This document shows positions 2,407 through 23,334 of a stretch of 25,481 nt of DNA, piece after piece. The DNA comes from Vermamoeba vermiformis (lineage: Eukaryota), in assembly GCA_045837725.1 (NCBI GenBank), contig JBEWZL010000080.1:62001-87481 (forward strand), given 5' to 3'. Below the pieces are notes generated by a model. That model worked only from the letters and a program-made list of their open reading frames with translations. It had not been told where the DNA came from and did not search any database. How positions within the stretch are numbered: the first letter of the stretch is position 1; the number at the start of each line of letters is the position of its first letter. The translations under genes and the position numbers were made by a program.

Positions 2407-5070
2407 TTAAAACACAAACATAACAGTTACCAGGGTGATAATGCTCGATACTACTTGCAAGGCATTTGCCGCAGAGGTGGGGTTAGTGACTACTGGCTCC
2501 GAAGTACTCGTTGGGGGTGCAACCGGTTGAGGCGGGATCTGACCTTGAACAGCGGTTGGCTGTTGTTTGCCGGAAAGACTAGTTTGAATACCACTCGGTG
2601 CTCCTGGTTGATTTTGAAGTTGTTGATTGAATTCAGTTTGTTGATTCTGGAATTGTTGCACAACTTGCGCTGGGTCTGGCTCTTGATTGGTCGGATCTGT
2701 TGTGAGGGACCAGTTAGCATTGAACGTATGAAGGCACATTGATCAACTTACCAGGAGCGACGTTAAGATCTGTTTCGAGGCTGGTCTGTTGTTGCTCTAC
2801 CGCTCGTTTCTTGGCCACTATCATCACACGACTGCCGCTGATGCCAGTCACATTGACGAATGCATCACGTACAAGAAGATCGAAGCCTGCAGGGAATGTA
2901 CCATTGGCGGTCAAGAGAATTCCGAAAGAAATCGCTGCGACAATTAGTTTCATACTTATATGCAATATACTTGAGACTTACACTCGGGACAATAGAGAGC
3001 AGGGGTGATTGTAAATGACAGTATGTAGTCTTCAAGCACCCAAGTGTACGAGTCACTTGCATTCAGCAGCACTTGCGAAGAGAATGGGAAGTTCGAACCG
3101 AGACCCACTGAGAAGACTTCAACTGGTGCCACGTTCTAGGTCACAACCATGAGATTAGAACATTGACTTTCATCAACATCGATCACTTACGATTGGTGAA
3201 AGATTATTCCTGTCATCGACTTGTGGGATGGAGAAGGAAAGAGAGCCAGTATTGTTGTAAGTGAAGTATCCTATTCTCGTGTTGCGATCAACGCACTCGA
3301 GAATCGGAACAACGTTTTGAAGGGGCAAAGGTGCTAAGGTATGAAACCTTTGAGCAATGCCTACGTGAACCCTGCAATTGTCGCCAATCACAACAGTGCC
3401 CTAGAATACGTCAGATATGTAATTATAGATGCTAATAGGTTCACTTACGTAAGATACATCTGCGTTGTAGTCAGTGGGCAGTCTGGCGCGAACGTTGACT
3501 TTCCACGTGTCCCACTCAAATCCCATGATTTCAAAGTATTGGCTATTAAGGTTGTATCCCAATGACAGCACAGTCTGGTCAACTATATAACGCCAATTAA
3601 TACTGGCATGCTTATGGAGTTACTGTATGATAGGTCTAATTCTTACCGTTAGAAAAGGCGAAGTTTCGATCAAGTGCACGGAAGGTTGTCGAAGAAGCCA
3701 AAGTTTGACCGCTAACTAGGTCCACAAAGTGTATCTAACATCATCAAGTTAGGAAAGGAAGTACTTAGAACGACATGTCTTACTCCAGAGCTCGAGATAA
3801 GATGAGCAAACGCCTTTCCGTTATGATACATAAGCGGAGAGTACAAAATGAATGCATTTCCGTTCCATGTAGCATAAGTCTGGTTTAGCGTGACCGCTCC
3901 AGTTGCCTATATTGAAAGTCAATACTTTTCTCCGTTAAACTCTTTGACTTACCGCATCGAGCTTGTAGAATCCAGCTCCATAAGCGTTCGCATAATGTGA
4001 GACTAAAATTTCATCGCCTACGATCATGACGTTCTTCGCGTATGCATTGGGCAAGCCGACAGTGTAGCTCGGCGACGCAATGATTGTAGTGCCTCCTACG
4101 GACATGGCGTACCCAGCCACAACAGGAAATTCCACTGATGAAGTCGTAGATTTGTACACTAAGACGTCTCTAATGCTCGTGCCGGTGAAGTCTCCAGTGA
4201 TGTTCGCGAGGGTCGTGTCAATGCTGGAAGTAGCGTCTTTGAAGTACATGATCACATCACCAATGAGGTTAGTCTGATACATCGATTTGACCATCCACTC
4301 GTTATTGAACGGAGCCATAGAAGTCTGAGCTCCGAAAGTTGCTGGGTCGGTAAAGTTGACCTGGATGTTGAAATTTGATGTGTCAAGTCTATTGGTCGTA
4401 GAAGCTCCGGAATAATATAACACGCCTCCTGCCAGCAGGGTAAGCCTTGGATCATCGAGTCCTGTCGAATGGCTTGAAATGAAAAGTTACAAGATCCGAT
4501 AAATAAATTTAATTTTGCCGAAACTTACTTATCTGTAACGCTATAGGAACCATCTGTAGTATTGAATCTAAAGATAGTATTCCATGAATTGTAAGTAGCT
4601 AAAATATACGCCCATCCCTGAAAATAAAGTGTCAAAATTACCAAATCCAATAAAAATAGATTGTATACCTTATCGTCTAAAGAGACCTCTCTTCCCACAG
4701 TGTGTGGATAAAATGTTGCAGGGAGATTCGGAAAGCTATGAATTACATTCAAAACAGTCGTTTTGCCGTTGGAAACAGATGCGCAACGAATCTGAAAAAT
4801 TAACCGTCAGAACTAAAAAGTTTAATTATTTAAATATTTAACAATCATTAAAAAGCTAGGATCTTGTCTGTTACATTTGTAAAGTTATTGAAATTCTTGT
4901 CTAAAAAAAGAGATCGATTGACAGAAGGTACTTACAGGTCTGTTGGATTTATAATTGCGCTGAGGATTTGCACCCGACATTGGATAGCCTGAGTCTGCTA
5001 AAGTAACTGCAGCGTGCATCCAGCCAACCAGGCACGCAACAATAATAGTGAAAACTACAATGCGCTTCAT
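2407..5070 (-). CDS. Surface protein paralog B, 682 aa: signal peptide, beta-propeller-like region, PILECV domain, SEA-like KKR domain, P/T/S stalk, GPI-like tail
   Basis: 11 exons: 5070-4936, 4791-4669, 4617-4529, 4472-3953, 3906-3784, 3734-3647, 3582-3449, 3400-3191, 3135-2982, 2934-2752, 2696-2407 (2049 nt, open). Starts MKRIVVFTIIVACLVGWMHA and ends with hydrophobic SAANALQVVSSIITLVTVMFVF, with no cytoplasmic tail. Confidence 0.88.
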
Positions 5071-5338: not shown

Positions 5339-8059
5339 TTAATTAAGAATTGAATACAAAATAGTTGCAATAATTAATGTTACGCTGGCCTTGACACTCG
5401 AAGTCACGCTTTTGACCGCTATTGGCGTAGGTGCAGCTACCGGGACAGTAGGAGGACTCACAGGAGGAGCTTGAGGTGGCAATACACCTTGTACTTCCGT
5501 GTCGGTCTTTTTTCCAGTAATGGCTAAAAGAATATTAGAAACATGCGCCAAGAGATCCAGATCTGAGTTACGTACAGTCAACTTTGACGCCAGCTGGAGC
5601 GCCATCAGAATTAGCTACTAGGACTGAAAATGACTCTTGTTCATTATTTACGAAGTTTCTAACGACATCGGAAGACGAAGACTCACTTCCGGAAGGATCT
5701 AAAAAAACGTCAAACAAAACATCCGCTCATTTTGCACGTTCAGATCCTTACCAGGAGCAACTTGAAGTTCCGTCTCTAAAGTGTCTGATTGAGCTACTGA
5801 GCGTTTTTTGGCAATGATTGTCACGCGGCTGTCAGTGACACCTGTCAGCATAACGAACGCTTTTCGAACGGTCTCTTGGAAGCCTTGAGGGAAAGGTGCA
5901 TTTGCTGTCAATCTAATCGTGATCGTTGCCGCTAATAGAAGGTATCAGTATAAGCTCGTATACTACGTGAAAACTAGTACTGTAACCTACTTGTCGGGCA
6001 GGCCAGTGACGAGCCAACAGCGAACGTCAAAGTGTAGTCTTCCAAAATCCACGTGTGCGTGCTAGCGTTGGTATTCAAAAGGACTTTGTGCGATAACGGG
6101 TACAACGGTCCTTCTCCAGCAGTGAAGTCAGTCAATGGTGCGAGGCCCTAAAGCCAACAGAATTAGTTCCGTTGTCCGCAAAAACCAGCCTGTAGAGAAT
6201 TCACACGTACTTCAGGGGTTAGTTCGTTTCGATCAGCGACGTGAGGGATAACAAAGTCCTTCGAACCAGCTCCCAAGTAATTGTACGAGAAGTACGCTTC
6301 GTTAGTCGCCAAATCCACGCATTGTAATGTCGGCACGAGATTTTGAATAGGCAATGGTGCAAAAGAGTAAACTCTGTCGTTAAGAATAGTGTACATGCGG
6401 CAATTTTCACCAACGATAGGGATGCCCTACATTTTCGTTAGACCTCGCTGAAGAGTTAGCCGTGTAACTTACGTAGTTATTATCGTACATATAAGATCCG
6501 TTGAACTGAGCCACCATTTTTGTTTTCCAGGTACCCCATTCAAGACCTTTCATTTGCAAAATGCCCGTGTCATACGTGTGCGTGTACATCAGTACCGTGT
6601 TGTCCCCTAAAATGTAATCATTTACCGTTAGTGAAATCGTAGCGTATTAGCAGTGTGCTTCTTACTTTTCAGGAAGATCGGATGCGATACTAGAGTAGAT
6701 TGTGGCCCTGGTTGCGGGACGACAGTTCCTCCGAGTAAATCAACAAATTGCAGGTCTCCGTTCTAACATTATCTTTAGTGCTAAGTTCAACGCGATTCAT
6801 TTGTATACGTACTTGTCCAGTAATTTGTGTGAATAGAACGTTATTGTGGTACACAGATCTGAGAGTTGTAAAATCCCACGTGTATGAGTTACCTTGGAAA
6901 GTACTAATGTCGGTACTAACGACATCAGTATTATCAGTCTATAATTAAGATCGTTAGTACTGCGTTGCAATGAAAGAATTGTTTTGGGCTCGTACCATGT
7001 TAATGCGGATCAGTGCCGACGATGGATAGTTACTCAAATAGAACAAGTAATCACCATCAAGCCAAGCCTTTCTTGCATTGCCAGGAAAAGATTTAGTCCA
7101 ATCCTTAGTGAACACATTCGTGGGACTGGCGCTTGGATTGACCAACACGGGGGTGGTACCAGATCCGGACGTCCAAACTAAGACTGGCAACGATTCATAG
7201 CCAACATTAGCATTAGGAGCGTTAATATTCACGTTGCCTGACGCATCAATGTACGTCAAAGAGTTGCCGACGTCAACACCGGTGTTGGACTTGACCATCA
7301 AGGTGGTTCCGTACGGTGCAAAGGATGAAGGTCCCACAATAGCAGAAGGGTTAGGGTTCTCTGTTGTGGCGATAGCTAGCATAGTAGTAGTATCTACGAT
7401 TACAGATTGCCCATCTGGAGCCAAGTAAAATTTGTTGTTCTTAACGTGCGTTGGATGCGCATCTTGATCCGAAGAACCCGGCAACGTAAACCTGCAATAT
7501 TAAAATGAGACCTATTAAAAAATATTTACTTTACTTCGTACCCTGTATCCTGAGCATTATAGCTTCCATCGGTTGCGTTCACTTTGAAAATACTGATGCT
7601 CACCTCGTTGTACGATCCAGCCACGTACAAAAAACCCTAAAAAATAAATTAAAAAATCGGAGAAATGTCGGAGAACGTACGTTTTCATCCAGAGTAAGTT
7701 GTGTGGAGGTGATCTGAAATGTACCAGCGAATTGCTGTGGAGGAAAAAACCAATCAGCACTCAGTACGGTTGTTCGGCCCGGAGCTACTTGTGGGCAAAG
7801 CACCTATTAAATAGGGATGTTAGTTTATTAAGGACTCATTTGCCGAAAAACCTTCAAAATAACGGTTAATTTCGGAAAAATTATATAATTTATATTTCGT
7901 CGATTAAAAGCCGTTACTAACCGATCGATCGATTTTATAGTTTCTTTCAGGATTTCCTCCTAGCATAGGATAGCCAGAGTTTGCAAGAACCTCTGCTACA
8001 ACTACGGTGGAGCAAATCCAAAAGCCAAAAATTGCTATTAAAAGCGTTCTGGAACTCAT
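5339..8059 (-). CDS. Surface protein paralog C, 689 aa, same architecture as B
   Basis: 12 exons: 8059-7922, 7803-7681, 7636-7542, 7491-6996, 6938-6813, 6762-6666, 6606-6473, 6426-6211, 6147-5991, 5931-5752, 5698-5576, 5523-5339 (2070 nt, open). Motifs LANSGYPMLGGNPERN, FAPLPIQNLVPTLQCV, HTWILEDY and IIAKKRS. Hydrophobic C-terminus. Confidence 0.88.
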
Positions 8060-9362
8060 TTTGGTACGCAGATGTTCCCCTATGATGTAAAGATCTAAAA
8101 AGAATGTTTTAGAAAAATTTTCGTTACCCGAACGAATTCCAAATTTAGATTAATGCAGCAGCTCCCGAAGTCCGACGAGATATTCCCTGGGAATTTTCTT
8201 TGATGTTAATGCCTTGGAGCTATCAATCTATGATGATCTGGCATTTTAATCCGGAGTTGTTAGTTAGATCCGGATCTTCGTGGCAAATCCTTTCTTCTGT
8301 ACGTCTGATAGTCAACCATTCATAGAATATTCGAGTTATTCATCCAACGTATGAAGGCACAGCTCAGCAATCGCGTGGTTGTTGACTCGTCACATCCGGA
8401 TTGACTTGCAAGACCAGAATTTTTTGCTAAGAACCGAAATAAATCTAAAAATAATTTCAATAATTAGCCTAATATATGGGATATCTAATTTGGCTATTAA
8501 AGCTGGAGAATGCGCTTGGCGAATATTTTAAAATTAAAACCAAATTTGTCAAGAACACTTACTTCGTTATGTTTAACATTCCTCGCATTGTTATTAAACG
8601 ATACCACTTAATCTTTGGGAGGATGTTGAGTCTGAAAAATGATCTTTTGTGTTTCTTCGACGCCGAAGTTTAGCCCGTGCAAAATCCCGCACAATAAACT
8701 TTAACGTTCACATTAACTTTTATTGTTTTGTTTTTTTTCAGGCAGGCCACCACCTGTTGGTTAGCAACAGTATTTACCGCGCACAATGACCATTTATTAT
8801 TGATTTACGCAAGCAAATATTGAATCTAGTTCGTAATGTGATCTAGATCGGTCAAATCAACATTGCAACTGTAGAATAATTATAAATTCGTCCATGAATA
8901 TCATTCGTATTTGTAGTCTTGGAGTTGCACGTTTTGGTAAGTCGAATCAGCTTTAGATCGATTTTGATTTTATTATTATTTGGACTACAAAGTCGTTAGC
9001 ATTATAATAACAACGGCATTAGTTTATTCATTGCATTAAGAATATTTATTATAAATTTTAACAATTAAACGAAATTTATTTTAGGCACTCGTGGATGTGG
9101 CTGGTTGGCACGATACGTTTACCGAACCCACACTTCTTTCGGGTATTTAGAACACCTCTATGGCATATAAGTATCAGTAACTGAGCATATACGGGCTCTT
9201 TTTGTTTTGCAAAAATCACAGTATTTGCACGATCCAGATCCCGTGCAACCAGATCGTACTTTTCTCCAAATAGGCAGTCTAAATTTGGAAATGTCATATT
9301 TTAAACCCACGGACCCGACATGTCAAACAAGCTATTTGTCGGAATACAGAGACCACACGAGG

Positions 9363-12300
9363 ATGTATTCTCGGTACTGCGTCATACTACTAATTGGTTT
9401 AGTCTTAAGTTCCTGCGCTGGATCTGTCGCAGGACAGAAGAACTGTACAAGCTTTGACAGCGTTCGAATTCAATTGCAATGGGTCTTACAAGCACAGTTT
9501 GCAGGTACCTTATCGTTTATTTTCAATAAGGAATCAGTGACTCGATTACAGTCATTCATCATCGACTGGTTACCGAATATTTGTAAATTGATTTTAAATC
9601 TGGTCCAATACTGTAGGAAAATGAATGCTTAATTTATTTTTGTTAACAGGATATGTCATTGCACAAGAATTAGGTTATTTTACCGACGAGTGCTTGAATG
9701 TGGTTGTTTTGTCAGGTGGACCAGGAGTGGATTCTGCCGAATGGGTAAGCTTAGCGTTGCTCATGGAAGTTTGAATCATTTGCTGCGGGGGTTCCGCTTC
9801 GATTTAAAGTATTGAAGCAATTTTTGGAAACTCCGAACCGATCGGATCCTGCTCCATAAATCCCGTTTTAAATAACGTAATAATATTAAATTAATATTTG
9901 ACTAGGTGATTAAAGACATTGCTCAATTTGGCGTTGCTTGGTCTCAAGTCAGTTTGAAATCGAAACTGGCGGGATCAGACATTGTCATCATTTCTCAGGT
10001 ACGTACAATACGAATGATATAGATAGACAGTCCTAGACAGATACATATACGAAATTGTGAATCTGCGATTGTCAGATCAAGCAATTTACACTTTTCTTCA
10101 AATAGGTTTTTCAACGTAGCGCGACTCTCGCGGTTGCGCGCGCAGACGAAGATATAAAAACTCTTAGAGATTTAAAAGGTAAAACAGTGGCTATGTGGGA
10201 CAATTTGGATGAAGGTAAGGATCGCGATGGATTTCAGATTCATTTTGGCTTAGAAACGTGCTTCTGAAAACATTTGATATTTGAGGGGCAGTACCATTGT
10301 TTGACATCGTTTTTAGAGTTCCGAGCGGCCCTTATTAAAGAAGGAATAAACATCGACACCGACATCAACCGCATCTCGCAAAATTTCAGTCCTTTAGGCT
10401 TGCTCCAAGGTAGATCAGATTGCGTAAGTGTAATTTTAAAATTTCCGAATTAAGAACCAAACCTGGCTTGTGTGGAGAACGGATCCCAAGCCAATTTACT
10501 GTAAATTATGATGTTTATTAAGTCGACGATTGAATGCAGGTCATGGCCACGACATACAACGAGCTCCCACAGTTATTGGGATACATCGAGCCCAATGCTA
10601 CGCAATTGTACAAACTCGATAATTTCACTATTTTTAGCTTCGAAGATCTCGGTACGTATTTTGATCCGTGTATTATCTGTTCGATTTATGTCGAAACTTA
10701 CCTTGATATCATTTCCGGTAAAGATTCAACGATGTGAAGTCATTAAATTTATCGGTATCGAGACTAATTCGGCCGAAAACGGAAATTTTGTTCAAGTTCC
10801 GAATTTCCATTTTTGTAATTGATGGATCGGGCAGCTTGCGTACTGTTTAAATATACCTAACTTCATCACTTAGGCACTGCTACGTTACAAGACAGTTTAT
10901 TCGTATCACGTGCTTGGCTCAACAACACTGCAAACCAAGATATTGCCAAGCGATTTTTAAGGTATTTTATAACGAACACAATTGAAAATCGATCCAGATC
11001 TAATTATGGCATTAGAGCAATGACGCGAGGTTGGATGCATTGCCGCGATTATATGGAAGATTGTGTCAACTTGATTTGGAGTGGCAATGATTATCAGCGG
11101 TGGATGATGAATGAAGTCAACAAGCTGATCTGGTATTTTGATCCGGATCGATTATTATTTTTCATGAAATACTAATAATGTATCGACAGGACCACAGATG
11201 AGACTTTTGGCCTGATGAACAGCTCGAAGTGGGCGAATACCGTTAATGTATTGAGCAAGGCTGGTATTATTCCTCCAGGAAATTACAGCGATACGTACGA
11301 GTAAGTGTTTTTTTTCCCTTATTAGGCAAGACACGTTAATAAATTCATCTCAGCATGACACTGATGTCAGAAGTCGTGGCTGAATTACAAGCGGCAGGTT
11401 CAACACTGCGCGTGAGTAATTTCGGTGCGTCGAACTTCAGCTGGTGTTTGCGAAGTGCGAGCTGTCCTGGCGCGAGCAGCACGGCGTACATTTGCACGGG
11501 CAACGAGAGAAGTAAGTCGTCTCTCTTTCTTGTCAATTATTCTGACAGCTATGTGAGGCCCTGCTTACTTGTACATCACCAACAACTTCACACTTCCAAT
11601 GCTCGTTATTGCTGCTGCGCTCGTGGCTCTTACGCTTGCTGTAGGCGGGATAGTGCTGTACAAGTACGTCAACGTAATGACCACGCATTGCTTATTGTTG
11701 GACGCATTCAAATTCATACAACCCAATTTTTTCGCGCTAACAACAAAAATGTCGGCACTCGTCACGCGACCCCATAGTCACGTGGGACTTTCCTAATAAG
11801 GCATAACCGGAGCCATCCCCAATGGCATTGTTGCCATATGGGGTTGATATAGATGCAATGCCTAGGGAGGTCGGGAGAGTGCGCAACATTATGGTTGTTT
11901 TCGCGAAAAAATCGAGTTGAATTTGAATGCGTCCAACAATAATGCATTTACTAACACTTGTCAGACGCGAGTCAGTTGTGATGAAGAGTGCCACCGTGTT
12001 GTTCATGTTGGTAATGCTCGTGGGCATCATCTTCATTTACGTGTCTGTCATCATGTACTCGCTTGACCACTCCACTGTCGTACGTTTAATATACATTTTC
12101 AGCATTGATGATGCATTACTAATGTTGTCAATCAGACGTGCTCGCTCTTCATCTGGTTGCTCTCGATCGGATTTTCGTTGCTATTTGTGTATGTAGACTT
12201 GCTTTATCGTTACGCTGCTTCTCCTGCTAATTATGTGGCGGACTGCAGGAGCTTATTCGTAAAGACGATTCGTGTTCATCGCATTTTCAAGAAAAATCTG

Positions 12301-13151
12301 TTGCTCAAGGTCTGGACGAACAACGACCTTGGCAAAGCAATGGCTGTGTTCTTGTCAATCGACGTCGTACGTAACAATCACCTCCCGGATAAGACCTCGC
12401 TAACATATAAATATGAATAGGTTCTATTGGTGCTGTTACAAGCTCTGTATCCGATCAGCATTCAGTGGATTCAGAACCCTGGCGACACGTTTGACAATTA
12501 CGCCCAATGTTATTTCTTCCCACCCATTCTATATGTTATCATTGGTTACAAGGTAGACTATCAGCACGAGTGTTTCGAGTATAATTCTAATTAATTTCAC
12601 CTTCAGGGCTTGACGGTGCTGTCTGGTGTCATCGTTGCCATCATGACGCGCAATGTCCCGTACAGTTTCTTCAATGAAGCGCGCTACATTGCTATCTCGG
12701 TAAGTTCAATACGATACGTTGCTGTAATCAATGCGTTGACCACTATATTATTCAGATTTACAATTTTGCGTTTGTCGCGGTCGTGATTTTAATTCCGATG
12801 GTCGTCGTTGCCAACGTTGTGGCCAATTTTTTGGTGCTTTGTTTGGCTATAATATTCACGACAAGTATTGCGCTGAGCTTGTTGTTTGTTCCTAAGATCT
12901 GGTAAGCCATATTTAGACATTCAAAGCCCTTCATATCTTACTCACATCCGCTCACCAGGTTGGTCACTCGTCGCTCTGAAGATGAATTAAAGGCCATGTA
13001 TGAAGCAGAAAAACGCCGATTCGTCAATGGTGGCAGCATGTCGAGCAGCGCCCATTCTCAACGGCAAAACGGACCTTCCACCACCGACGGATCCGTACGC
13101 ACCTCCTCAGTGATGGATACCGCGTCAGTCAAAGTGGACTCAAGGACATAA
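9363..13151 (+). CDS. Class C (GABA-B/Grl-like) GPCR with an N-terminal NMT1/THI5-like solute-binding domain, 695 aa
   Basis: 18 exons: 9363-9504, 9650-9744, 9906-9998, 10106-10214, 10317-10423, 10540-10651, 10874-10961, 11016-11132, 11190-11300, 11354-11511, 11558-11663, 11965-12079, 12136-12188, 12249-12366, 12421-12552, 12607-12699, 12756-12901, 12959-13151 (2088 nt, open). Signal peptide. NMT1/THI5 motifs: QLQWVLQAQFAGYVIAQELGYF, GGPG, IKTLRDLKGKTV, TYNE, QDSLF, MMNEVNKLIW. 7tm_3 motifs: VKTIRVHRIF, TRNVP..FNEARYIAISIYN, LFVPK. Confidence 0.9.
11692..11942. mobile_element. MITE-like non-autonomous DNA transposon in GPCR intron 11
   Basis: Inverted arms 11692-11760 and 11877-11942; the outer 25 bp (TTATTGTTGGACGCATTCAAATTCA) are perfectly inverted. 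Flanked by TGC...TGC, or alternatively a TA duplication with ends 11695/11939. Removing it reduces the 301-bp intron to ~47 bp, the typical local size. Confidence 0.88.
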
Positions 13152-13490
13152 TAAGAATTATTAAATTATTCATTGTAAAGTTAAATCGTTGTAGACGTGC
13201 TGTAAAATATTTATAAATTTACTAATTTAGGATTTGCTAGTTTAAAGGTAGCAAGGATCCGCTTTCACGGTACCGAGAGATCTCTTGGGCTCCCTACTCC
13301 TACGCTAGTCCATTGACATATTTCGTTGTACGTGTGACACAAGGGAACTAAACTGGAAAATTCGCGGACGACACCAACGGAGGCATGTTCTTCTTATTTT
13401 TTCAAAGAGAAATTGAGATTTTTAACAGAAAACGGTTTTTAAAATCATTCAAAACAACCGGTAATTATTTCAATTCGTAACATTCTCATA

Positions 13491-14084
13491 ATGTCAGCGT
13501 CAACTAAACAAAATCAATTTGTACTACCTGAATTAATAGGCGATAAATGCTGCTTAAAGGCGTGGAGTTTGGAGTTTGTTCAATCCATCACCAAACACGC
13601 AAACAACGAAAAAGTGGCAGGCAATCTATTGGCTCTTCCTTATCCTTATAAAGAAGAAGATGCCATCAACTTTATAACAACCGTTTTAAATGATGAAATA
13701 ATGGCTAAGAGATTTTTCGCTATTTGCGTGGATGTGGACGGCAAGTTAGAAGCAATAGGAGGAATTGGCGTGGACTTAAATTGCGGTTATAAACGACATC
13801 GCGTGGAGATTGGTTATTGGATTGGCGAAGAATATTGGGGCAGAGGAATAGTGCCCGAAGCAATACGATTGATGATCAGTTATTTATATTCAAATGACTT
13901 TAAAACACATGTCAATGAAGGACAAGAAGTGAAGAGAATAGACGCGTGCATATTCGCGTGGAACGCTAACTCTGGAAAGGTACTTGAGAAATGCGGATTC
14001 GTTTGCGAAGGATTGCAGAAGAGTGCTTATTTAAAGAATGGAAAATATGTTGATGGATTAATGTACACTCTCGTGAGAGAATAA
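13491..14084 (+). CDS. GNAT N-acetyltransferase, RimJ/RimL (Acetyltransf_3) type, intronless, 197 aa
   Basis: Motifs LPYPYKEEDAINFI, VEIGYWIGEEYWGRGIVPEAI (acetyl-CoA binding) and NANSGKVLEKCGFVCEG. Confidence 0.93.
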   Translation: MSASTKQNQFVLPELIGDKCCLKAWSLEFVQSITKHANNEKVAGNLLALPYPYKEEDAINFITTVLNDEIMAKRFFAICVDVDGKLEAIGGIGVDLNCGYKRHRVEIGYWIGEEYWGRGIVPEAIRLMISYLYSNDFKTHVNEGQEVKRIDACIFAWNANSGKVLEKCGFVCEGLQKSAYLKNGKYVDGLMYTLVRE

Positions 14085-15279: not shown

Positions 15280-16453
15280 ATGAGCAAGCCTGTAAGTTTT
15301 TCCGAGATCTAAGCGCTTTGATCCGATTGCTAATTCATTTTCTACAGATCGTCGTAGTCATTGGCATTACTGGTCAACAAGGTGGCGCTACCGCTCGTCA
15401 CTTGTTATCAGGAGGCAAATTTGAAGGTAAGCTTTTCCTTATATTATAATAATTCGGGAATTACCTCCGATAAACCGAAATTTCAACTCTTGCAAGATCC
15501 ACATAATTGAATTAAACAGAAGTTGGCGCATAATGTACAAACATTCATTCATGCCAAAGTTCTAATTGCTTGACATTGTTTTAGTACACGCCCTCGTTCG
15601 AGATCCGTCGTCAGAAAAAGCCAAACCATGGGCAAGCAAAGGTATGAAATACGTATTCCATTTTTAAAGAATAAAATTAAGAAGCTGTCAGTTCTATTCT
15701 TTGCACGTGACTTTTCGGGTTTGAACTGAAATTTATGCATAAATTTACACATTTTTTTTCACAGGAGTAAAGCTCGTCAAGGGAGACTTAGAAGACGTTG
15801 CCACTCTGGATTCAGCCTTCAAAGGTGCATATGGTGTCTATTTAGTGGTCAACTACTGGGGTATCGGTGCTGAGCGCGAGATCCAGCAAGGCAAAAATGC
15901 GATCGACGCCGCCAAGCGCGCCAGAGTGAAGCACTTGGTCTACACATCTGTCGGAGCTGCTGATAAGAAGACTGGCGTGCCGCTTTTCGACAGCAAGTGG
16001 GTTACTGAAGAATACCTGCGCGAATCCGGCTTGCACTACTCGATCCTTCGACCTGTTTTCTTCATGGAAAATTTCAACTTCTTTTTCGCAGACAAGCTCA
16101 AAGACGGAATTTTCAGCCAACCTTTGCGATCGACAGATCGTCTCCGAGTCATCGCTGTTGACGACATTGGTGCTTTTGGCGCACTAGCTTTTGAAAAAGA
16201 CATTTTGCCTAATAAGGCACTCGAAATTGCCGGCGACAATCCTACGATAGCAGAAGTCACCAAGATCCTCGGCGCTGACAAGTTCGAAGAAACGCCATTG
16301 GAAGGGATCTCCGATTCCGACACCAAAGTCATGTTCAAGTTCTTGCAAGACGTCGGGTTTACCGCCGATATTGCTGACTGCAAGAAAATTTATCCGAACT
16401 TGACTGACACAAAGACTTGGGCCGCAAAGGACTTTATTTACAAACGAAAATAA
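15280..16453 (+). CDS. NmrA/HSCARG-like NAD(P)-binding protein, 278 aa
   Basis: Exons 15280-15291, 15348-15426, 15585-15641, 15765-16453. Translation MSKPIVVVIGITGQQGGATARHLL...VHALVRDPSSEKA...GVKLVKGDL...AFKGAYGVY...VPLFDSK...ILRPVFFMENF has the atypical-SDR Rossmann motifs. Confidence 0.94.
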
Positions 16454-18627: not shown

Positions 18628-20934
18628 TTAAATCAAAGCAACGATCGGTGCCAATAAAGCGATAATAGACAAGCTAATTACATACGATGATGAAGTTTTT
18701 GTAAATGGGGAGTTAGTCGTTTGAGGCGTCAGTGGGGCATTTGGCTCAACAAACGGTGAGGTGACAGGAGGCTGAGACGGAATTACTCCTCTGATCTCCG
18801 TGGATAGTGGCATGCCATCGACATCTTAAGGAAAAAAGAATTAGTTAAATCGAACTGGTTCTCGCTAGGACTTGCCTTTTGTAAGCACATCCGCGGGTGC
18901 ATCCGGAAGGGTTGGAAGCTGATTAGTAAAAGAATTTAATTGTTGCTCGGCAAACTTTTGAACAGCCTCTTCGGGCGATAACTCGGTCTGGGTCTCATCA
19001 GGAGCAACTTGCAAGTCTAATTCAAGCTCTGTCGGAGATTGTTCCGTGGATCGCTTGCCAGTCAAAAATGTCACACGAGTCTCGTTAATTCCTGCAACTG
19101 AAGCGAACAGTAAACGCACTGATTCGCGGAAACTGATTGGGAAATTGCCATTAGCCGTTAAGACAATCTTAAACCGGACGTCTGAATAGAGTTAGGATTA
19201 ATAGAGACGAGTTAAATTTGAACGTACTCTGAGGGCAAAGAAGGTTCGAACTAACGTTGAATTTCAAAACATAATCCTCTAACTGCCAAGTAAACGTGCC
19301 AGAGTTACCAACGTTGGTTCTAAATGACAACGGAAAATATTTGCCTCGTCGATTAGCTCCAAAGTCGGTGCCAGGAGCGACATTCTAAAAAAGGAAAAGA
19401 TGAGGAAAAAGGTTCATGAATGAGTGACCGACAAGCCTTACCAGCGGCGACAAGTTATTTCGATCCGAGAATTGAGGAATGACCGCGTCAATGTCACCAA
19501 GATTGTCGTACGAGAAGTACGCCAAGCCATTTTGATTGACGCACTCGAGAATAGGAACGATGTTTTGAATAGGCAGCGGTGCGAAGGCAAATAATTTGTT
19601 GTTTAAAGTCGAGTACACGTGGCAATCCTCTCCGATAACAGGTGGACTCTAAAAGAATTTAAAAATTTAAAATTTGTGGATCTACCAACCATTTAATATT
19701 ACTTACTATAATAATATCAGAAAAGACATTATCCCTCGGAAAAGACCCTTTAGTATTAATCTCTAAAGTGTCCCAATCTAATCCAATCACATCAATGCGT
19801 TCAAACCCCAACGCCGAGTGCATCAACAATGTGTTATCAGCTGGTCAACAAAAAGTCAACAAGATGATATTTTTTGTCTAATTACTCACGTTTGGAAAAA
19901 ATCGGGGCTGAAGGAAGAGTATTGTAAGTTGAGTCAGGAAGTAATGTTCGATTGTTCAACAAATCCACGACTTGTGTCTAAATAAGGCAATTTATGTTAA
20001 TCGCTCTTTTAGTGCCATCAGCGCATTGAATTTAAATTTCTTTACCTTGAGAGCACCAGTATTGTAGATTTGAGCGATGGATCTGTTGTTGAACGCGTAA
20101 ATGCCAGCTTGAGGATTGAACGAACTGCCGCCGAATTTATCGATAGCCTTTGTTAAGAGAGACTCTCCAGTTGCCTATTAAATGAAATTTCGGTTAGTTA
20201 CCACTCATTCGTCGAAAAAACTTTGACGGGGTCATTATTAGGTGAAAATACTTACCGCATGAAAGACGTAAAATTTAAGTGAATTCGCGTTCACTGCTCC
20301 CTTTGTAAACATTTGCAAGTAGTCGCCTTCTATCCAAGCGAGAGCCGCTAATTCGCCGGTAAAAGAGTGCTCGTATTGAGGGGACTTGACGATTGTAATG
20401 TAATCTGGATAACTTCCAGTGTAACTAACAATAATCGGCATTTCATTCGTAGTATTTTTGTAAATCAATACACGCGACGGATCACCACCCACAAAATTGA
20501 ATTTTGTCGAATCCACTGTTCGATCCGAGACTTTGATGTAAGTCATAATATTGTCTGAAATCGTTGTAGAAGACACGCCTTCATTACTGGTGACCATATG
20601 AGTGCCCAAATAAGGAGCGAAGGAGAACTGAGGGTAAGGATAATTAGGCATCGGGATCGGATCTCCGATAAAACTCATTGTCGTCGTATCAACAGTGTAG
20701 GCACTTTGCGCTGTTGCGTAATAAAACTTGTTGCCCTGGACAATCGTTATGTACGCGATTGACAAGTCCTCTATGGTCGAAACGCTACATCCAGCATATT
20801 AAAAATTAAACTTTAAAAAAAGACCATTATTATAAGTATACTTACTTATTTAATACGGTCCCATCAACTCCATTTAACTTGAATATGTAATTTGTCGAAT
20901 CAACGAAACCCAAGGCCACAACATACACATTACC
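18628..20934 (-). CDS. Surface protein paralog D; exon 3 onward only, exons 1-2 displaced beyond the inserted element
   Basis: Exons 20934-20846, 20784-20256, 20174-20046, 19977-19890, 19840-19707, 19648-19442, 19384-19228, 19181-18876, 18824-18628, phase-consistent and mostly matching paralog exon boundaries. Motifs FAPLPIQNIVPILECV, FTWQLEDY and TGKRS. GPI-like tail. Confidence 0.85.
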
Positions 20935-20996: not shown

Positions 20997-23334
20997 TCAA
21001 TCGTCATATCGCTTGTTTGGTTTTTTGTTTCGCTTTGTTCTTCCATAGTCAGTTGTGTTTATATTTCGGTATTCACGTGCAATCCACTCAGTACTTGTCA
21101 CTGGCTGTATCAACACTGGGGCATCATAGTCATTTTCATCTAATTCATCTTCATCTGGATAAGTCTCTGGTATGACAGCATCAACATCAGGGTGCACTGC
21201 CTCGTGCACCACTTTCACTGAGGTTGTGGACTGGTCATGGTGACGCTGCTGTGGTGGCAAGAACATCAATTCATAATTTGTTGTTGGGCTGTCAAACTCA
21301 ATATCTAGTAGATCAATTGCAGTTGTGTCGTCTTCTGCAGGCTGATCGGCATTGAATAATTCTTCAAAGTATTGTTGCTGTTCCTCAGATAGTTTGTCGT
21401 AAGTTTTTCTGGTCGCTTCAATCACTTTGTCGTCAATTGGCTTTGGTTCAATCTTGATTGGTTTGTCCGCTGGAATATTGTGAAGGATAACAATATCGTC
21501 ACCATCTGCACCCCCTTTCCACTCCTCATCTGTTGCCGTGTAATTGCGCCAATGCATTACAACGCTTCCTTGTGCATTGACAGTGAATCGAAAAACATGG
21601 GGCTTTGTGTGCCCAGTGAGCTTTGGTAGATATGGGGCAAGCCAGCCACGATAATCATAGATAGTTTTTACCAATCGCACTTCTGGCGGCGAATTGTAGC
21701 AACTCTTAATGTACTCTTTGACATCTTCATCGTCGCCCGTAAGGAGATTATGTGACTTGAGTCCAATAGCCACTGGCACGTTCTCTTGGTCAATGTCTGT
21801 ATGAGTGTGTCCTTGAGGAAGGCAAATGAAATAGATGGTATTGGTAAACTTTTTGAGCAGCAAAACCGCAAAAAAGCCAAAAACGTAGGTATTTTTGTTC
21901 TCTCGCCAGCAGTTGTCGCTTTGAAATACCATTGTTGGTGGCAGAGCCTGACCATCTCTGATTTGCGAAACTATGTGAATGGCTAGTAGATTGATGCTGT
22001 AATTGCTGTCGTGACTATACTGTTGTGCAATTGAGACAAACAGAGTACGTCGCTTGGTGTTGTGGTTGATAAGTCCGGATATTTGCAATCGCAAACGTGC
22101 AAGACGGAGCCAAGATTTTGGGAACTGAGACCAGGCAATGTGCGGAATCAAAATCCCTGAATAGCCATCCCATATCATTTGCCAAATCAAAAAGCTAGCG
22201 ATTAGCTTTCGGTTAGAATATGTCAGCCGTTCTAACTTTTGCAATGCGTTGTGCTTTGCCACTTGCTTTTGAACGTTGGTAACTTGAGTTTGGGACACTG
22301 CAGCAGCTTGTTGCAACTTCCTACGCAAGATTAGCTTCACTGTGAGTATGGAAGAAACTTACATTCTGAGCTCCACACATTCGTCACATTTGCCCAACCG
22401 CGTAGTCTTTGGGAATTTGATCCATGCGTACTGAGAAATTGTCGTATAGAAAGTACTCAGCGATGCTATGCGATGCGTTTCCTCAAATTCTGAAGCATAT
22501 TGAGCGTAAAGAAGCTTTTTGTTAAGCGCAATAGGGCAGTGCCATTGATCACTATCAGGTTGTTCATCGAAAAATATGGACATCAAGCTGAGCACAAAAC
22601 TTTGCACCGACTGTAATTGAGCTGATGAATACAATCTGAGGGCATTACCATGTGGAATGACAGAGCAACTAGACTCTTGTTTGATTTGTTGTAGCAGAGG
22701 TGCAAGCTTGTTTGTACTGATTCCAAGCAGTTTGATGAAAGCGCGTTGACAGACTTCAAGACCGTCAAGCTTGTAACAAATCGTCGGAGGCTTGTCACTT
22801 CCTTGATCAACTTTCATCGCATTAAGGGAATCAAGTAGCCATCTTGACCTGCCATCGTGTCAGGCATTTAGCAGAAACATGAGGTACGTACCTTTCGCGC
22901 TCAGATTTCTCAGAGTATGGCAGTCGTAAGCGTTCAATCTTCTGGACATTAAATTGCCTCATACACAGTTGTTTGCAGCACTTGTATTGCAACAGCTTTT
23001 CATTGAAATTACATAGCTTAAGCTGCTTTCGTGATGGTGACGCGACGCGCAACTTTCGAGTCTCGGATTTGTAAGTGCGTTTTGGGGAGGGGTCATAGAT
23101 TGAGGATACTCGTCTATTAATATCTATTATGTGTAAGCAATGCAGCTAATTGTAGAACGATACGTACCGTCAAAAATTTTATTGCTATCAACCTCGTAAA
23201 TCCACGACCGCCGATCATCGCTCGTGCTTGTTGTCTCATCTTCATCTACATATATTAATGAAATGCAGATAGATATAAATGCCCATACCCTTATTGAAGA
23301 CTTTTGTTGTGTCAAAATCGCAGATCCAGTCCAT
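20997..23334 (-). CDS. DDE/RNase H-fold transposase, Sola1-like/DUF7869-type, ~721 aa
   Basis: Exons 23334-23289, 23245-23168, 23123-22892, 22848-22363, 22320-20997 (2166 nt, open). Motifs CCKQLC, YKLDGLEVCQRAFIKLLGIS, KCDEC, H..LQ..ER..Y, MIWDG (first Asp, ~22168), FQSDNCWRENKN (second Asp, ~21915), LPQGHTHTDIDQ and PHVFRF. The start codon is the least certain part. Confidence 0.82.

Follow-up and report, generated by a model that had tools for sequence, protein, structure and literature searches.

How does a binding domain of bacterial type come to serve, as it appears to here, as the extracellular part of a eukaryotic G-protein-coupled receptor (GPCR), and what would it bind? The question is raised by a gene of Vermamoeba vermiformis at positions 9363-13151 of the stretch analyzed here, which comprises 25,481 nt of contig JBEWZL010000080.1 (assembly GCA_045837725.1, positions 62,001 to 87,481 of the forward strand). 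This whole stretch is called the window below, and all coordinates refer to it. An earlier reading made from the letters alone (the sequence-only reading) had described the gene as a class C receptor with an NMT1/THI5-type sensor, had proposed either nucleobases or compounds like thiamine and its pyrimidine moiety (HMP) as ligands, and had suggested a phylogeny of the ectodomain against bacterial homologs. Based on the analyses described below, the gene probably encodes a functional class C (GABA-B-like) receptor with a type II NMT1/SsuA ectodomain of bacterial descent.

One gene for two domains

Joining the forward frames of 9300-13200 by coordinate gave a coding frame of 18 exons at 9363-13151 (+), with the ATG at 9363 and the TAA at 13149-13151; start, end and number of exons all agree with the sequence-only reading. 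The coding sequence (2088 nt) forms one frame of 695 codons plus stop, and the product has 695 amino acids (aa). All 17 introns are bounded by GT..AG, range from 46 to 301 nt in length and have 5′ ends of the type GTAAGT, GTACGT, GTATGT or similar. The coding region as a whole is backed by this model, by transcript joints, by colinearity with an ortholog (P0004) and by tblastn.

Transcript evidence came from run X7, the RNA nature of which is a guess on record. A contig of 2187 nt (depth 11) from this run lacks introns 3-17. Fifteen joints, each over a GT..AG interval, are listed for it, and it has one further joint besides these: 9998/10106, 10214/10317, 10423/10540, 10651/10874, 10961/11016, 11132/11190, 11300/11354, and 11511/11558 in the first part, and 11663/11965, 12079/12136, 12188/12249, 12366/12421, 12552/12607, 12699/12756, and 12901/12959 in the second. 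Since 15 introns are missing, the contig represents a spliced transcript that continues from the binding domain into the seven-transmembrane (7TM) domain. It runs from exon 3 to position 13145, six bases short of the stop. Ten single-letter differences from the window were observed, and the source of the contig is apparently another strain.

The same architecture was found without introns in other sources. When exon 10 was used as a query for longer proteins, six proteins were obtained among 19 candidates, and P0002-P0004 carry both PF00003 and PF09084. P0004 is a 696-aa open reading frame (ORF) on a 2145-nt contig from another source; it is contiguous on that contig, and this form is therefore intron-less too. 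Its alignment with the window model is colinear over the whole length, with 512 of 690 columns identical (74%; 77% over the 360 columns of the ectodomain) and no gap at any of the 17 junctions. Matches of P0004 in the window (tblastn) lie within 9363-13151 only. P0004 stands in for the joined window protein in the searches and the structure modelling reported here. The fused architecture is certain for exons 3-18: the two halves are not separate genes there, as the X7 transcript spans both.

All exons lie on the forward strand. Exon 1 (9363-9504) holds the start codon, a hydrophobic signal-like segment and the first beta strand of the binding domain; it is covered by a separate 151-nt record (9379-9501), and its junction with exon 2 is backed solely by the gapless alignment to P0004. 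Exon 2 (9650-9744) aligns with P0004 and matches NMT1 (E 0.0073, profile positions 7-35). Exon 3 (9906-9998) is given by the model and the joint 9998/10106, and exon 4 (10106-10214) by transcript joints and its own NMT1 match, which at 25.6 bits exceeds the cut-off of 20.5. Model and transcript joints together define exons 5 (10317-10423), 6 (10540-10651), 7 (10874-10961), 8 (11016-11132), and 9 (11190-11300), as well as exon 10 (11354-11511), in which the binding domain ends and three linker cysteines follow. The first transmembrane helix (TM1) is encoded by exon 11 (11558-11663; model, transcript joints and hydropathy), TM2 by exon 12 (11965-12079; transcript joints, 7tm_3 profile 34-69), the start of TM3 with the conserved Cys453 by exon 13 (12136-12188; model and transcript joints), and the end of TM3 with its K..R motif, together with TM4, by exon 14 (12249-12366; transcript joints, 7tm_3 profile 89-130). 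Exon 15 (12421-12552; model and transcript joints) contains the second extracellular loop with Cys538, and TM5. The end of TM5, the third intracellular loop and an N-E-A-R-Y motif lie in exon 16 (12607-12699; joints, 7tm_3 E 2.5e-5, profile 174-203), and TM6 and TM7 with an F-V-P-K motif in exon 17 (12756-12901; transcript joints, 7tm_3 profile 204-251). Exon 18 (12959-13151; transcript joint) encodes a Ser/Thr-rich cytoplasmic tail, which has low pLDDT (predicted local distance difference test) in the ortholog model, and the stop.

Binding domain, linker and seven-helix domain

The product starts with a hydrophobic stretch (residues 6-24), which on hydropathy would be a signal peptide, and has hydrophobic helices from residue 393 on. 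The bilobed NMT1/SsuA-type domain covers residues ~25-350 (9435-11429 including introns, +; Pfam, alignment of relatives, ortholog model and fold matches). It is followed by a linker of residues ~351-385 with Cys356, Cys362, and Cys372 (11430-11580, +), modelled in the ortholog with two short strands, and by the class C seven-helix domain, residues ~386-632 (11581-12959 including introns, +; Pfam, alignment with GABA-B and fold matches). Nine N-x-S/T sequons precede residue 390, in the ectodomain, whose cysteines are at 28, 62, 182, 258, and 265. Pfam, alignment and hydropathy thus confirm the order given in the sequence-only reading, i.e., signal-like N-terminus, NMT1/SsuA-type domain, three-cysteine linker and GABA-B-like 7TM.

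The family of the ectodomain was assigned by profile. P0004 matched Pfam NMT1 (PF09084) with an E-value of 1e-28 (101.2 bits, residues 46-262), and two of the ten N-terminal exons of the window (2 and 4) match the same family individually. Of 8000 candidates scored, 627 proteins were related to P0004 at E up to 1e-5. Among the best 120 of these, 114 are NMT1-only proteins of ~380-470 aa with 36-45% identity over ~300 residues (E 1e-64 to 1e-72), those with names being ABC substrate-binding proteins of Actinobacteria, Acidimicrobiia, Nanopelagicales, and others; the remaining six carry both Pfam domains (P0002-P0004, P0007, P0008, P0009). None of the curated NCBIfam subfamilies, including the ThiY type, was matched; SsuA_fam alone appears, far below its cut-off. 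No solved chain was found by sequence with the ectodomain fragment P0006 at E up to 1, and when the solved structures were searched with a profile from alignment A2, 7TM matches prevailed and the ectodomain was not aligned.

An AlphaFold2 model of P0004 (116 aligned sequences) was obtained with a mean pLDDT of 87.9 and a predicted template modelling score (pTM) of 0.67; the ectodomain blocks (residues 31-340) have predicted pLDDT values of mostly 95-98. The first-ranked Foldseek match of this model is a thiamin-bound binding protein (4nmy_A, E 1.4e-15, TM-score 0.81, 19% identity), followed by ThiY, which binds FAMP, another form of the thiamine pyrimidine (3ix1_A, E 1.2e-14, TM-score 0.81, 16% identity). 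Both bind a pyrimidine ring. Thi5 (4esx_A, TM-score 0.83), 3qsl, SsuA (2x26_A, TM-score 0.69), 3un6, and a pyrroloquinoline quinone (PQQ) binder come next, and GABA-B chains appear from rank 19. At the level of the predicted model, a two-lobed fold of the NMT1/ThiY type is confirmed, at low identity. Pfam and Foldseek agree in this respect with the sequence-only reading, in which the sensor was a bacterial-type NMT1/SsuA domain of the ThiY/Thi5 fold, and, as stated there, the sensor is of a different family from the ANF and BMP domains known from class C receptors. It is not a type I (ANF/LIVBP) flytrap; NMT1 is a type II fold. The type I flytrap is not universal in class C, since the published fungal forms with OpuAC and SBP_bac_1 are also of type II (PMC3251606).

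Thi5 itself is an enzyme, and CCCxC is the motif of the Thi5-type HMP-P synthase. No two cysteines are adjacent anywhere in the 695-aa product. The motif is consequently absent, which bears out what the sequence-only reading had said of it, and the window protein is not filed as a Thi5 enzyme.

The C-terminal half of P0004 matched Pfam 7tm_3 (PF00003) over residues 391-633 (5.6e-45; 154.4 bits against a cut-off of 33.5). Four of the seven window exons sent to the same comparison (12, 14, 16, and 17) match the family in colinear order with 17, 15.3, 24.5, and 14.7 bits, each of them below the cut-off of 33.5 when taken alone. In a search of solved chains with P0004 (84 distinct chains at E up to 0.01), GABA-B2 was the closest (E 2e-23), followed by GABA-B1, the mGlu receptors, and GPR158; the GABA-B-like character of the 7TM domain, as first proposed from the letters, is thus upheld. 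P0004 and GABA-B2 have in common the TM3 Cys, the second-loop Cys, the K..R of TM3, N-E/D before TM6 and the F-V-P-K of TM7, and the window protein keeps the class C residues Cys453, Cys538, K-T-I-R, N-E-A-R-Y, and F-V-P-K. The cysteines of TM3 and the second loop are described as a disulfide pair, the basic residues of TM3 and the acidic residue before TM6 as needed for GABA-B activation, and P-K in TM7 as a class C motif (PMC3727952). By the 7tm_3 profile and these activation residues the window protein is a predicted class C (Glutamate-family) GPCR. A nine-cysteine domain is absent from it, and the link to TM1 has ~35 residues and three cysteines; two of these cysteines are invariant across the four fused proteins compared. 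Prediction of two copies of the P0004 ectodomain (residues 27-380) gave a score of 0.40 against a mark of 0.42.

Bacterial relatives and spread of the family

The nearest relatives of the ectodomain point to a ligand class through their genes. A genome scan with P0040 matched at least 585 stretches. A relative is encoded in 579 of these, and the 80 loci retained come mostly from Actinomycetota and Chloroflexota. Fifty-eight loci are 9 kb or longer; all their ORFs were clustered and the cluster representatives annotated, and the counts below refer to these 58. In 56 the gene for the binding protein follows genes for a permease, an ATPase and a permease. The bacterial relatives belong to ABC importers and stand alone, as proteins of the lipoprotein or secreted type, whereas the window domain is fused to a 7TM. 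A dihydropyrimidinase is encoded nearby in 34 loci (TIGR02033, 541.8 bits against a cut-off of 393), a class III aminotransferase in 27, an F420-dependent oxidoreductase of family TIGR03842 in 26 (577.5 bits against 295), a CoA-acylating methylmalonate-semialdehyde dehydrogenase in 21 (TIGR01722, 706.8 bits against 448), and a CN-hydrolase (PF00795) in 19. At least one of these five catabolic families is present in 51 loci. In reductive pyrimidine degradation, a first reduction is followed by dihydropyrimidinase, a carbamoyl-amidase, an aminotransferase of the beta-alanine type and a semialdehyde dehydrogenase (PMC7332683, PMC2713857), and the neighbouring genes would, by their family matches, encode these steps. 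The bacterial transporter most likely imports a pyrimidine or an intermediate of the pathway; no publication characterizing the transporter of these pyrimidine loci was found by title or abstract start. A search of 11 loci (143,658 bases) against Rfam returned three tRNAs and no riboswitch, the thiamine pyrophosphate (TPP) type included, which speaks against thiamine or flavin control.

The oxidoreductase of family TIGR03842 is luciferase-like and was observed together with dihydropyrimidinase in the same 26 loci (L077, L029, L014, and others). It is located where a dihydropyrimidine dehydrogenase would be expected and may carry out an F420-dependent first reduction of pyrimidines in Actinomycetota.

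Conservation at single sites was compared by aligning 81 rows of bacterial type with 12 that carry 7tm_3 and 13 further long ones. At 76 positions the bacterial rows are conserved to at least 85%, and 53 of these have the same residue in the window protein. Most of the conserved polar and aromatic residues are kept in this way, namely Q37, W40, Q43, Q45, F46, Q110, R114, K136, W141, Q168, and D181 in the first part and Y188, N189, E190, D226, W255, R259, Q276, W278, E282, N284, and W288 in the second. A fair reading of the alignment is that the ligand would be related, not necessarily identical, to that of the bacterial proteins. The pyrimidine-catabolic neighbours and the lack of a TPP riboswitch in the 11 loci searched favour a ligand like uracil, thymine or a dihydropyrimidine over HMP or thiamine. 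A pyrimidine nucleobase or close derivative of this kind is our tentative candidate for the ligand class, to which we give somewhat less than an even chance. Of the two ligand classes suggested in the sequence-only reading, the nucleobases thus gained from the bacterial neighbourhoods and the riboswitch search, and HMP/thiamine was left with support from the fold.

The fused family extends well beyond this genome. A profile of four fused proteins was compared with 1.84 billion cluster representatives, of which 24,058 matched with E-values of 0.001 or less, 1,216 of them with 1e-30 or less. Seven of the ten best full-length matches combine NMT1 with 7tm_3 (P0124-P0128, P0130, P0138), and in the other three Pfam recognises 7tm_3 alone. 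Ten further long matches all contain NMT1: four add a nucleotide cyclase, two a 3′5′-cyclic nucleotide phosphodiesterase (PDE) and one a protein kinase plus a cyclase, and four are recorded with no other recognised domain. Overall, the same ectodomain clan is found on 7tm_3 in at least nine further clusters (P0007, P0008, P0009, P0124-P0128, P0130, P0138). Names of the source were found for three of 15 proteins: Rhizamoeba saxonica for P0007 and Platysulcus tardus for P0125, both 7tm_3 fusions, and Pelomyxa schiedti for P0137 (KAH3762201.1), in which NMT1 is joined to a phosphodiesterase. A eukaryotic origin is on record for the intron-bearing gene of the window and for these three named proteins. 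In the Atlas search the nearest clusters scored 0.81 (7tm_3, with OpuAC in 13% of members, diatoms) and 0.79 (7tm_3, oomycetes), both below the level of 0.9 and no more than leads.

A quick tree comprised 107 ectodomain rows; a branch with support of 97 sets 25 multi-domain rows apart in it, and one long row (P0208) was placed among the bacterial rows. A careful tree (LG+C20+F+G4) was then built from 55 rows; P0208, P0250, P0251, every second locus row and two out of three short rows were left out. It separates 23 multi-domain rows from 32 bacterial-type rows with a support of 99/98, the branch being present in 98% of 200 bootstrap trees; among the bacterial-type rows the locus rows are named bacteria and the other short rows are presumed bacterial. 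The phylogeny suggested with the sequence-only reading thus places the multi-domain forms in one clan apart from their bacterial homologs. The window protein groups with P0004 (100/100) and then with the Rhizamoeba protein (100/87), and lies across the 99/98 branch from the clade of binding proteins of the bacterial pyrimidine operons. The tree is unrooted, so that sister and nested placements of the multi-domain clan are not told apart. A single capture from bacteria would be the economical reading, since the stand-alone operon form is overwhelmingly bacterial. The 7tm_3 label changes at least three times on the careful tree and is interleaved with the cyclase and phosphodiesterase forms, which indicates that outputs were exchanged. 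The 7TM tree (36 rows) also shows NMT1-bearing receptors interleaved with fragments and other receptors; nine of its 33 forks are unresolved, and it gives no resolution on the number of fusion events. The recruitment of a bacterial-type NMT1 domain, proposed in the sequence-only reading, is not specific to this genome, given the at least nine further clusters with 7tm_3 and the other outputs.

Type II binding domains on class C receptors are not new in principle, since they are in print for fungi: LysR_substrate, PBP_like_2, OpuAC, and SBP_bac_1 have been described on Glutamate-family receptors of Allomyces macrogynus and Spizellomyces punctatus, and BMP domains on those of Dictyostelium (PMC3251606, Krishnan et al., 2012). 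A survey of diatoms describes PBP1-type domains (PMC3727952). The terms NMT1, periplasmic and solute-binding are absent from the main text of a choanoflagellate survey (PMC12716839). No combination of NMT1/PF09084 with 7tm_3/PF00003 was found in the literature searched, and none of the papers returned joins THI5 or SsuA to a GPCR; the supplementary tables of PMC3251606 and PMC12716839 could list such an architecture. The automatic name given to the fused proteins by the Joint Genome Institute (JGI) is ‘NitT/TauT family transport system substrate-binding protein’, i.e., the architecture is unrecognised in public data. The new elements are NMT1 as the sensor variant, the close kinship of this domain with bacterial proteins, its reuse with several outputs and the lead to a ligand.

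The fungal type II receptors resemble the window protein in joining a class C 7TM to a periplasmic-binding domain other than ANF, in having no nine-cysteine domain and in being known from sequence only, but NMT1 is not among the domains named for them in the available text of PMC3251606. The NMT1 family further differs from the fungal forms in its 36-45% identity to bacterial proteins, its single multi-domain clan and its reuse with cyclase, PDE and kinase. Dictyostelium fAR1 (GrlL) is likewise an amoebozoan class C receptor with a bilobed ectodomain of bacterial type, which detects bacterial folate and lipopolysaccharide (PMC5969738); other Grl receptors have ectodomains of the BMP or ANF type (PMC3251606). 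In contrast to the window receptor, which is known from sequence, fAR1 has a type I ectodomain of another family and ligands established by experiment. By analogy it is a functional precedent and a model for what the window receptor might do (PMC5969738). The metazoan GABA-B receptor is the closest solved 7TM and shares with the window receptor the lack of a cysteine-rich domain, the short link to TM1, K..R in TM3, the acidic residue before TM6 and P-K in TM7. Its ANF-type flytrap, obligate heterodimer and coiled-coil tail are features of its own, none of which is seen in the window receptor. ThiY (3ix1), the thiamin-binding protein of Clostridium difficile (4nmy), and Thi5 (4h67, 4esx) are alike in fold (TM-score on the target 0.76-0.83) and in Pfam family (NMT1), but have 13-19% identity and are soluble proteins of transport or enzymes; adjacent cysteines do not occur in the window protein. 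The bacterial NitT/TauT-type binding proteins of Actinomycetota and Chloroflexota are the nearest relatives in sequence and share motifs with it, but they are stand-alone proteins of ABC importers whose own ligand is putative.

Surroundings, mode of action and meaning

Intron 11 of the receptor gene contains a 251-bp element with perfect 25-nt terminal inverted repeats (11692-11942, no strand assigned; not a protein-coding part); the 25-nt repeat has no other copy within the window. ORF P0001, 96-97% identical and from another source, maps to 11355-11693 and 11947-12417 with two residues between the segments, which means that its source lacks ~247 bp at the element. The element looks like a polymorphic insertion of the miniature inverted-repeat transposable element (MITE) type. 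Directly downstream of the receptor gene is an ORF for a GNAT acetyltransferase (13443-14084, +; Acetyltransf_3, 7.4e-19), followed by an NmrA/HSCARG-like ORF (15743-16453, +), the named relatives of which are proteins of bacterial metagenome-assembled genomes (MAGs) at ~41-47% identity; other relatives reach 63-70%. Four ORFs of 181-208 aa on the reverse strand (990-1616, 3935-4486, 6954-7499, and 20238-20798) have stretches in common, e.g., V-L-V-Y-K-S-T-T-S-S. Pfam families were found in none of the four, which look, from their shared stretches, like paralogues of one another forming a dispersed local gene family around the receptor gene. A 453-aa ORF with DUF7869 (E 1.8e-47), possibly derived from a transposon, lies within 20997-22859 (-); ahead of it, in the same direction, is a 166-aa ORF to which no family was assigned.

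The window protein is likely, from its domains and kept residues, to be a working small-molecule receptor. In the working that we propose, a small heterocyclic metabolite, most probably a pyrimidine nucleobase or a derivative, would bind between the two lobes of the ectodomain and close them. The movement of the lobes would be relayed through the short, disulfide-stabilised linker to the 7TM, which has kept the class C activation residues and would switch a heterotrimeric G protein; the receptor would probably act as a dimer. Cleft closure, dimerisation, G-protein coupling and the biological role are what we infer from this architecture. In the wider family, the captured bacterial domain would be a portable extracellular sensor of presumably eukaryotic proteins with GPCR, cyclase, phosphodiesterase, and kinase outputs.

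Several observations weigh against this reading of the gene and of its ligand. The 5′ end of the receptor is unsettled. The X7 contig begins with 248 letters without a match on the window, followed by 92 nt of intron 2 (9814-9905) with no AG ahead of 9814; exons 1-2 are missing from it, introns 1 and 2 have no listed joint, and exon 1 is on its separate record. This end could reflect an alternative first exon, an unspliced form, a difference between strains or an assembly chimera. By eye, the last 30 of the 248 letters resemble window positions 9116-9140, which lie upstream of the gene. No run recorded as RNA was listed among those containing the window sequence, and three sets of raw RNA reads under the species label of the best DNA match yielded 0, 0, and 2 reads, which is no measure of expression. 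In the predicted model the linker has a pLDDT of 53-78, and with the pTM of 0.67 the placement of the ectodomain relative to the 7TM is uncertain. As to the ligand, the class rests on gene neighbourhood in bacteria at only 36-45% identity; none of the five catabolic families is present in seven of the 58 loci, and the CN-hydrolase, which may be beta-ureidopropionase-like, scores below every curated NCBIfam cut-off. The window protein is changed at 23 of the 76 conserved positions, including 143-144 (G-N to N-L), 171-172 (D-M to S-P), and 275 (H to Y), and 144, 171, and 172 are also sites where the eukaryote consensus departs from the bacterial consensus. With these changes, specificity may have shifted after capture.

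Such a shift is part of the most serious alternative, in which the receptor works with another ligand: a sulfonate, hydantoin, N-carbamoyl-beta-alanine, beta-alanine, or whatever a drifted specificity would prefer. The ligands of NMT1/SsuA proteins are chemically varied, SsuA (2x26, 3uif) and a PQQ binder (9ooz) are among the fold matches, and the cargo of the bacterial transporter could be any of the pathway intermediates; together with the changed positions this makes the alternative a real possibility, although many conserved polar and aromatic positions are kept, which argues for a related ligand. A receptor for the pyrimidine moiety of thiamine (HMP, FAMP) or for thiamine itself would fit the best fold matches (4nmy_A and 3ix1_A, then Thi5) and the Pfam NMT1/THI5 family. 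We consider it unlikely: identity to the matched structures is 16-19%, the sequence search with P0006 found none of them, the curated ThiY-type model is unmatched, the close bacterial relatives adjoin pyrimidine-catabolic rather than thiamine genes, and TPP riboswitches are missing from the 11 loci searched.

The other two alternatives concern the receptor as such. The ectodomain might be a structural or adhesive relic, and the receptor constitutive or regulated through its 7TM, as in class C orphans that lack a working flytrap, e.g., GPR158 (PMC8611064) and GPR156, the latter being among the fold matches. This would sit poorly with an ectodomain that is 77% identical between the window protein and P0004 and conserved across the fused family, that retains the conserved bacterial motif positions, and that occurs on four kinds of output domain, as expected of a sensor; we regard it as improbable. 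It is more improbable still, to the point of being nearly dismissed, that the frame joins neighbouring genes or bacterial contamination. Introns 1 and 2, which lack a listed joint, and the start of the X7 contig would leave room for such an artefact, but for exons 3-18 it is refuted by the removal of 15 canonical introns across the domain boundary. Moreover, nine spliceosomal introns lie within the binding-domain part itself, and contiguous two-domain ORFs are found elsewhere (P0003, P0004, P0007, P0008, P0009, P0124-P0128, P0130, P0138).

A functional class C receptor with a captured NMT1/SsuA sensor thus remains the reading that we prefer. For the conversion of a bacterial binding protein into a eukaryotic sensor, class C receptors are the textbook example. 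To our knowledge, hardly any member from outside the animals has a known ligand. Here the conserved bacterial neighbourhood provides a concrete set of ligands that is cheap to test (uracil, thymine, dihydropyrimidines, and intermediates of the pathway), and one assignment would annotate a whole family of protist receptors, including GPCRs, cyclases, phosphodiesterases, and the kinase-cyclase. Such an assignment would also make the family a naturally occurring case of one extracellular sensor module combined with different outputs. If the reading as a receptor for pyrimidine bases is true, the gene would encode the first GPCR identified for signals of the uracil type. We know of no identified receptor for bacterial uracil in the Drosophila gut. 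Bacterial uracil has been described there as a signal sensed by the host (PMC4862428). That the gene encodes a cell-surface receptor for free pyrimidine bases, belonging to a multi-output sensing system of protists by which phagotrophs detect bacteria as Dictyostelium does with folate, is a doubtful though attractive extension, and prey sensing by the window receptor is speculation. Should the organism be a bacterivore, such a receptor would add to folate a second chemical prey cue for amoeboid cells.

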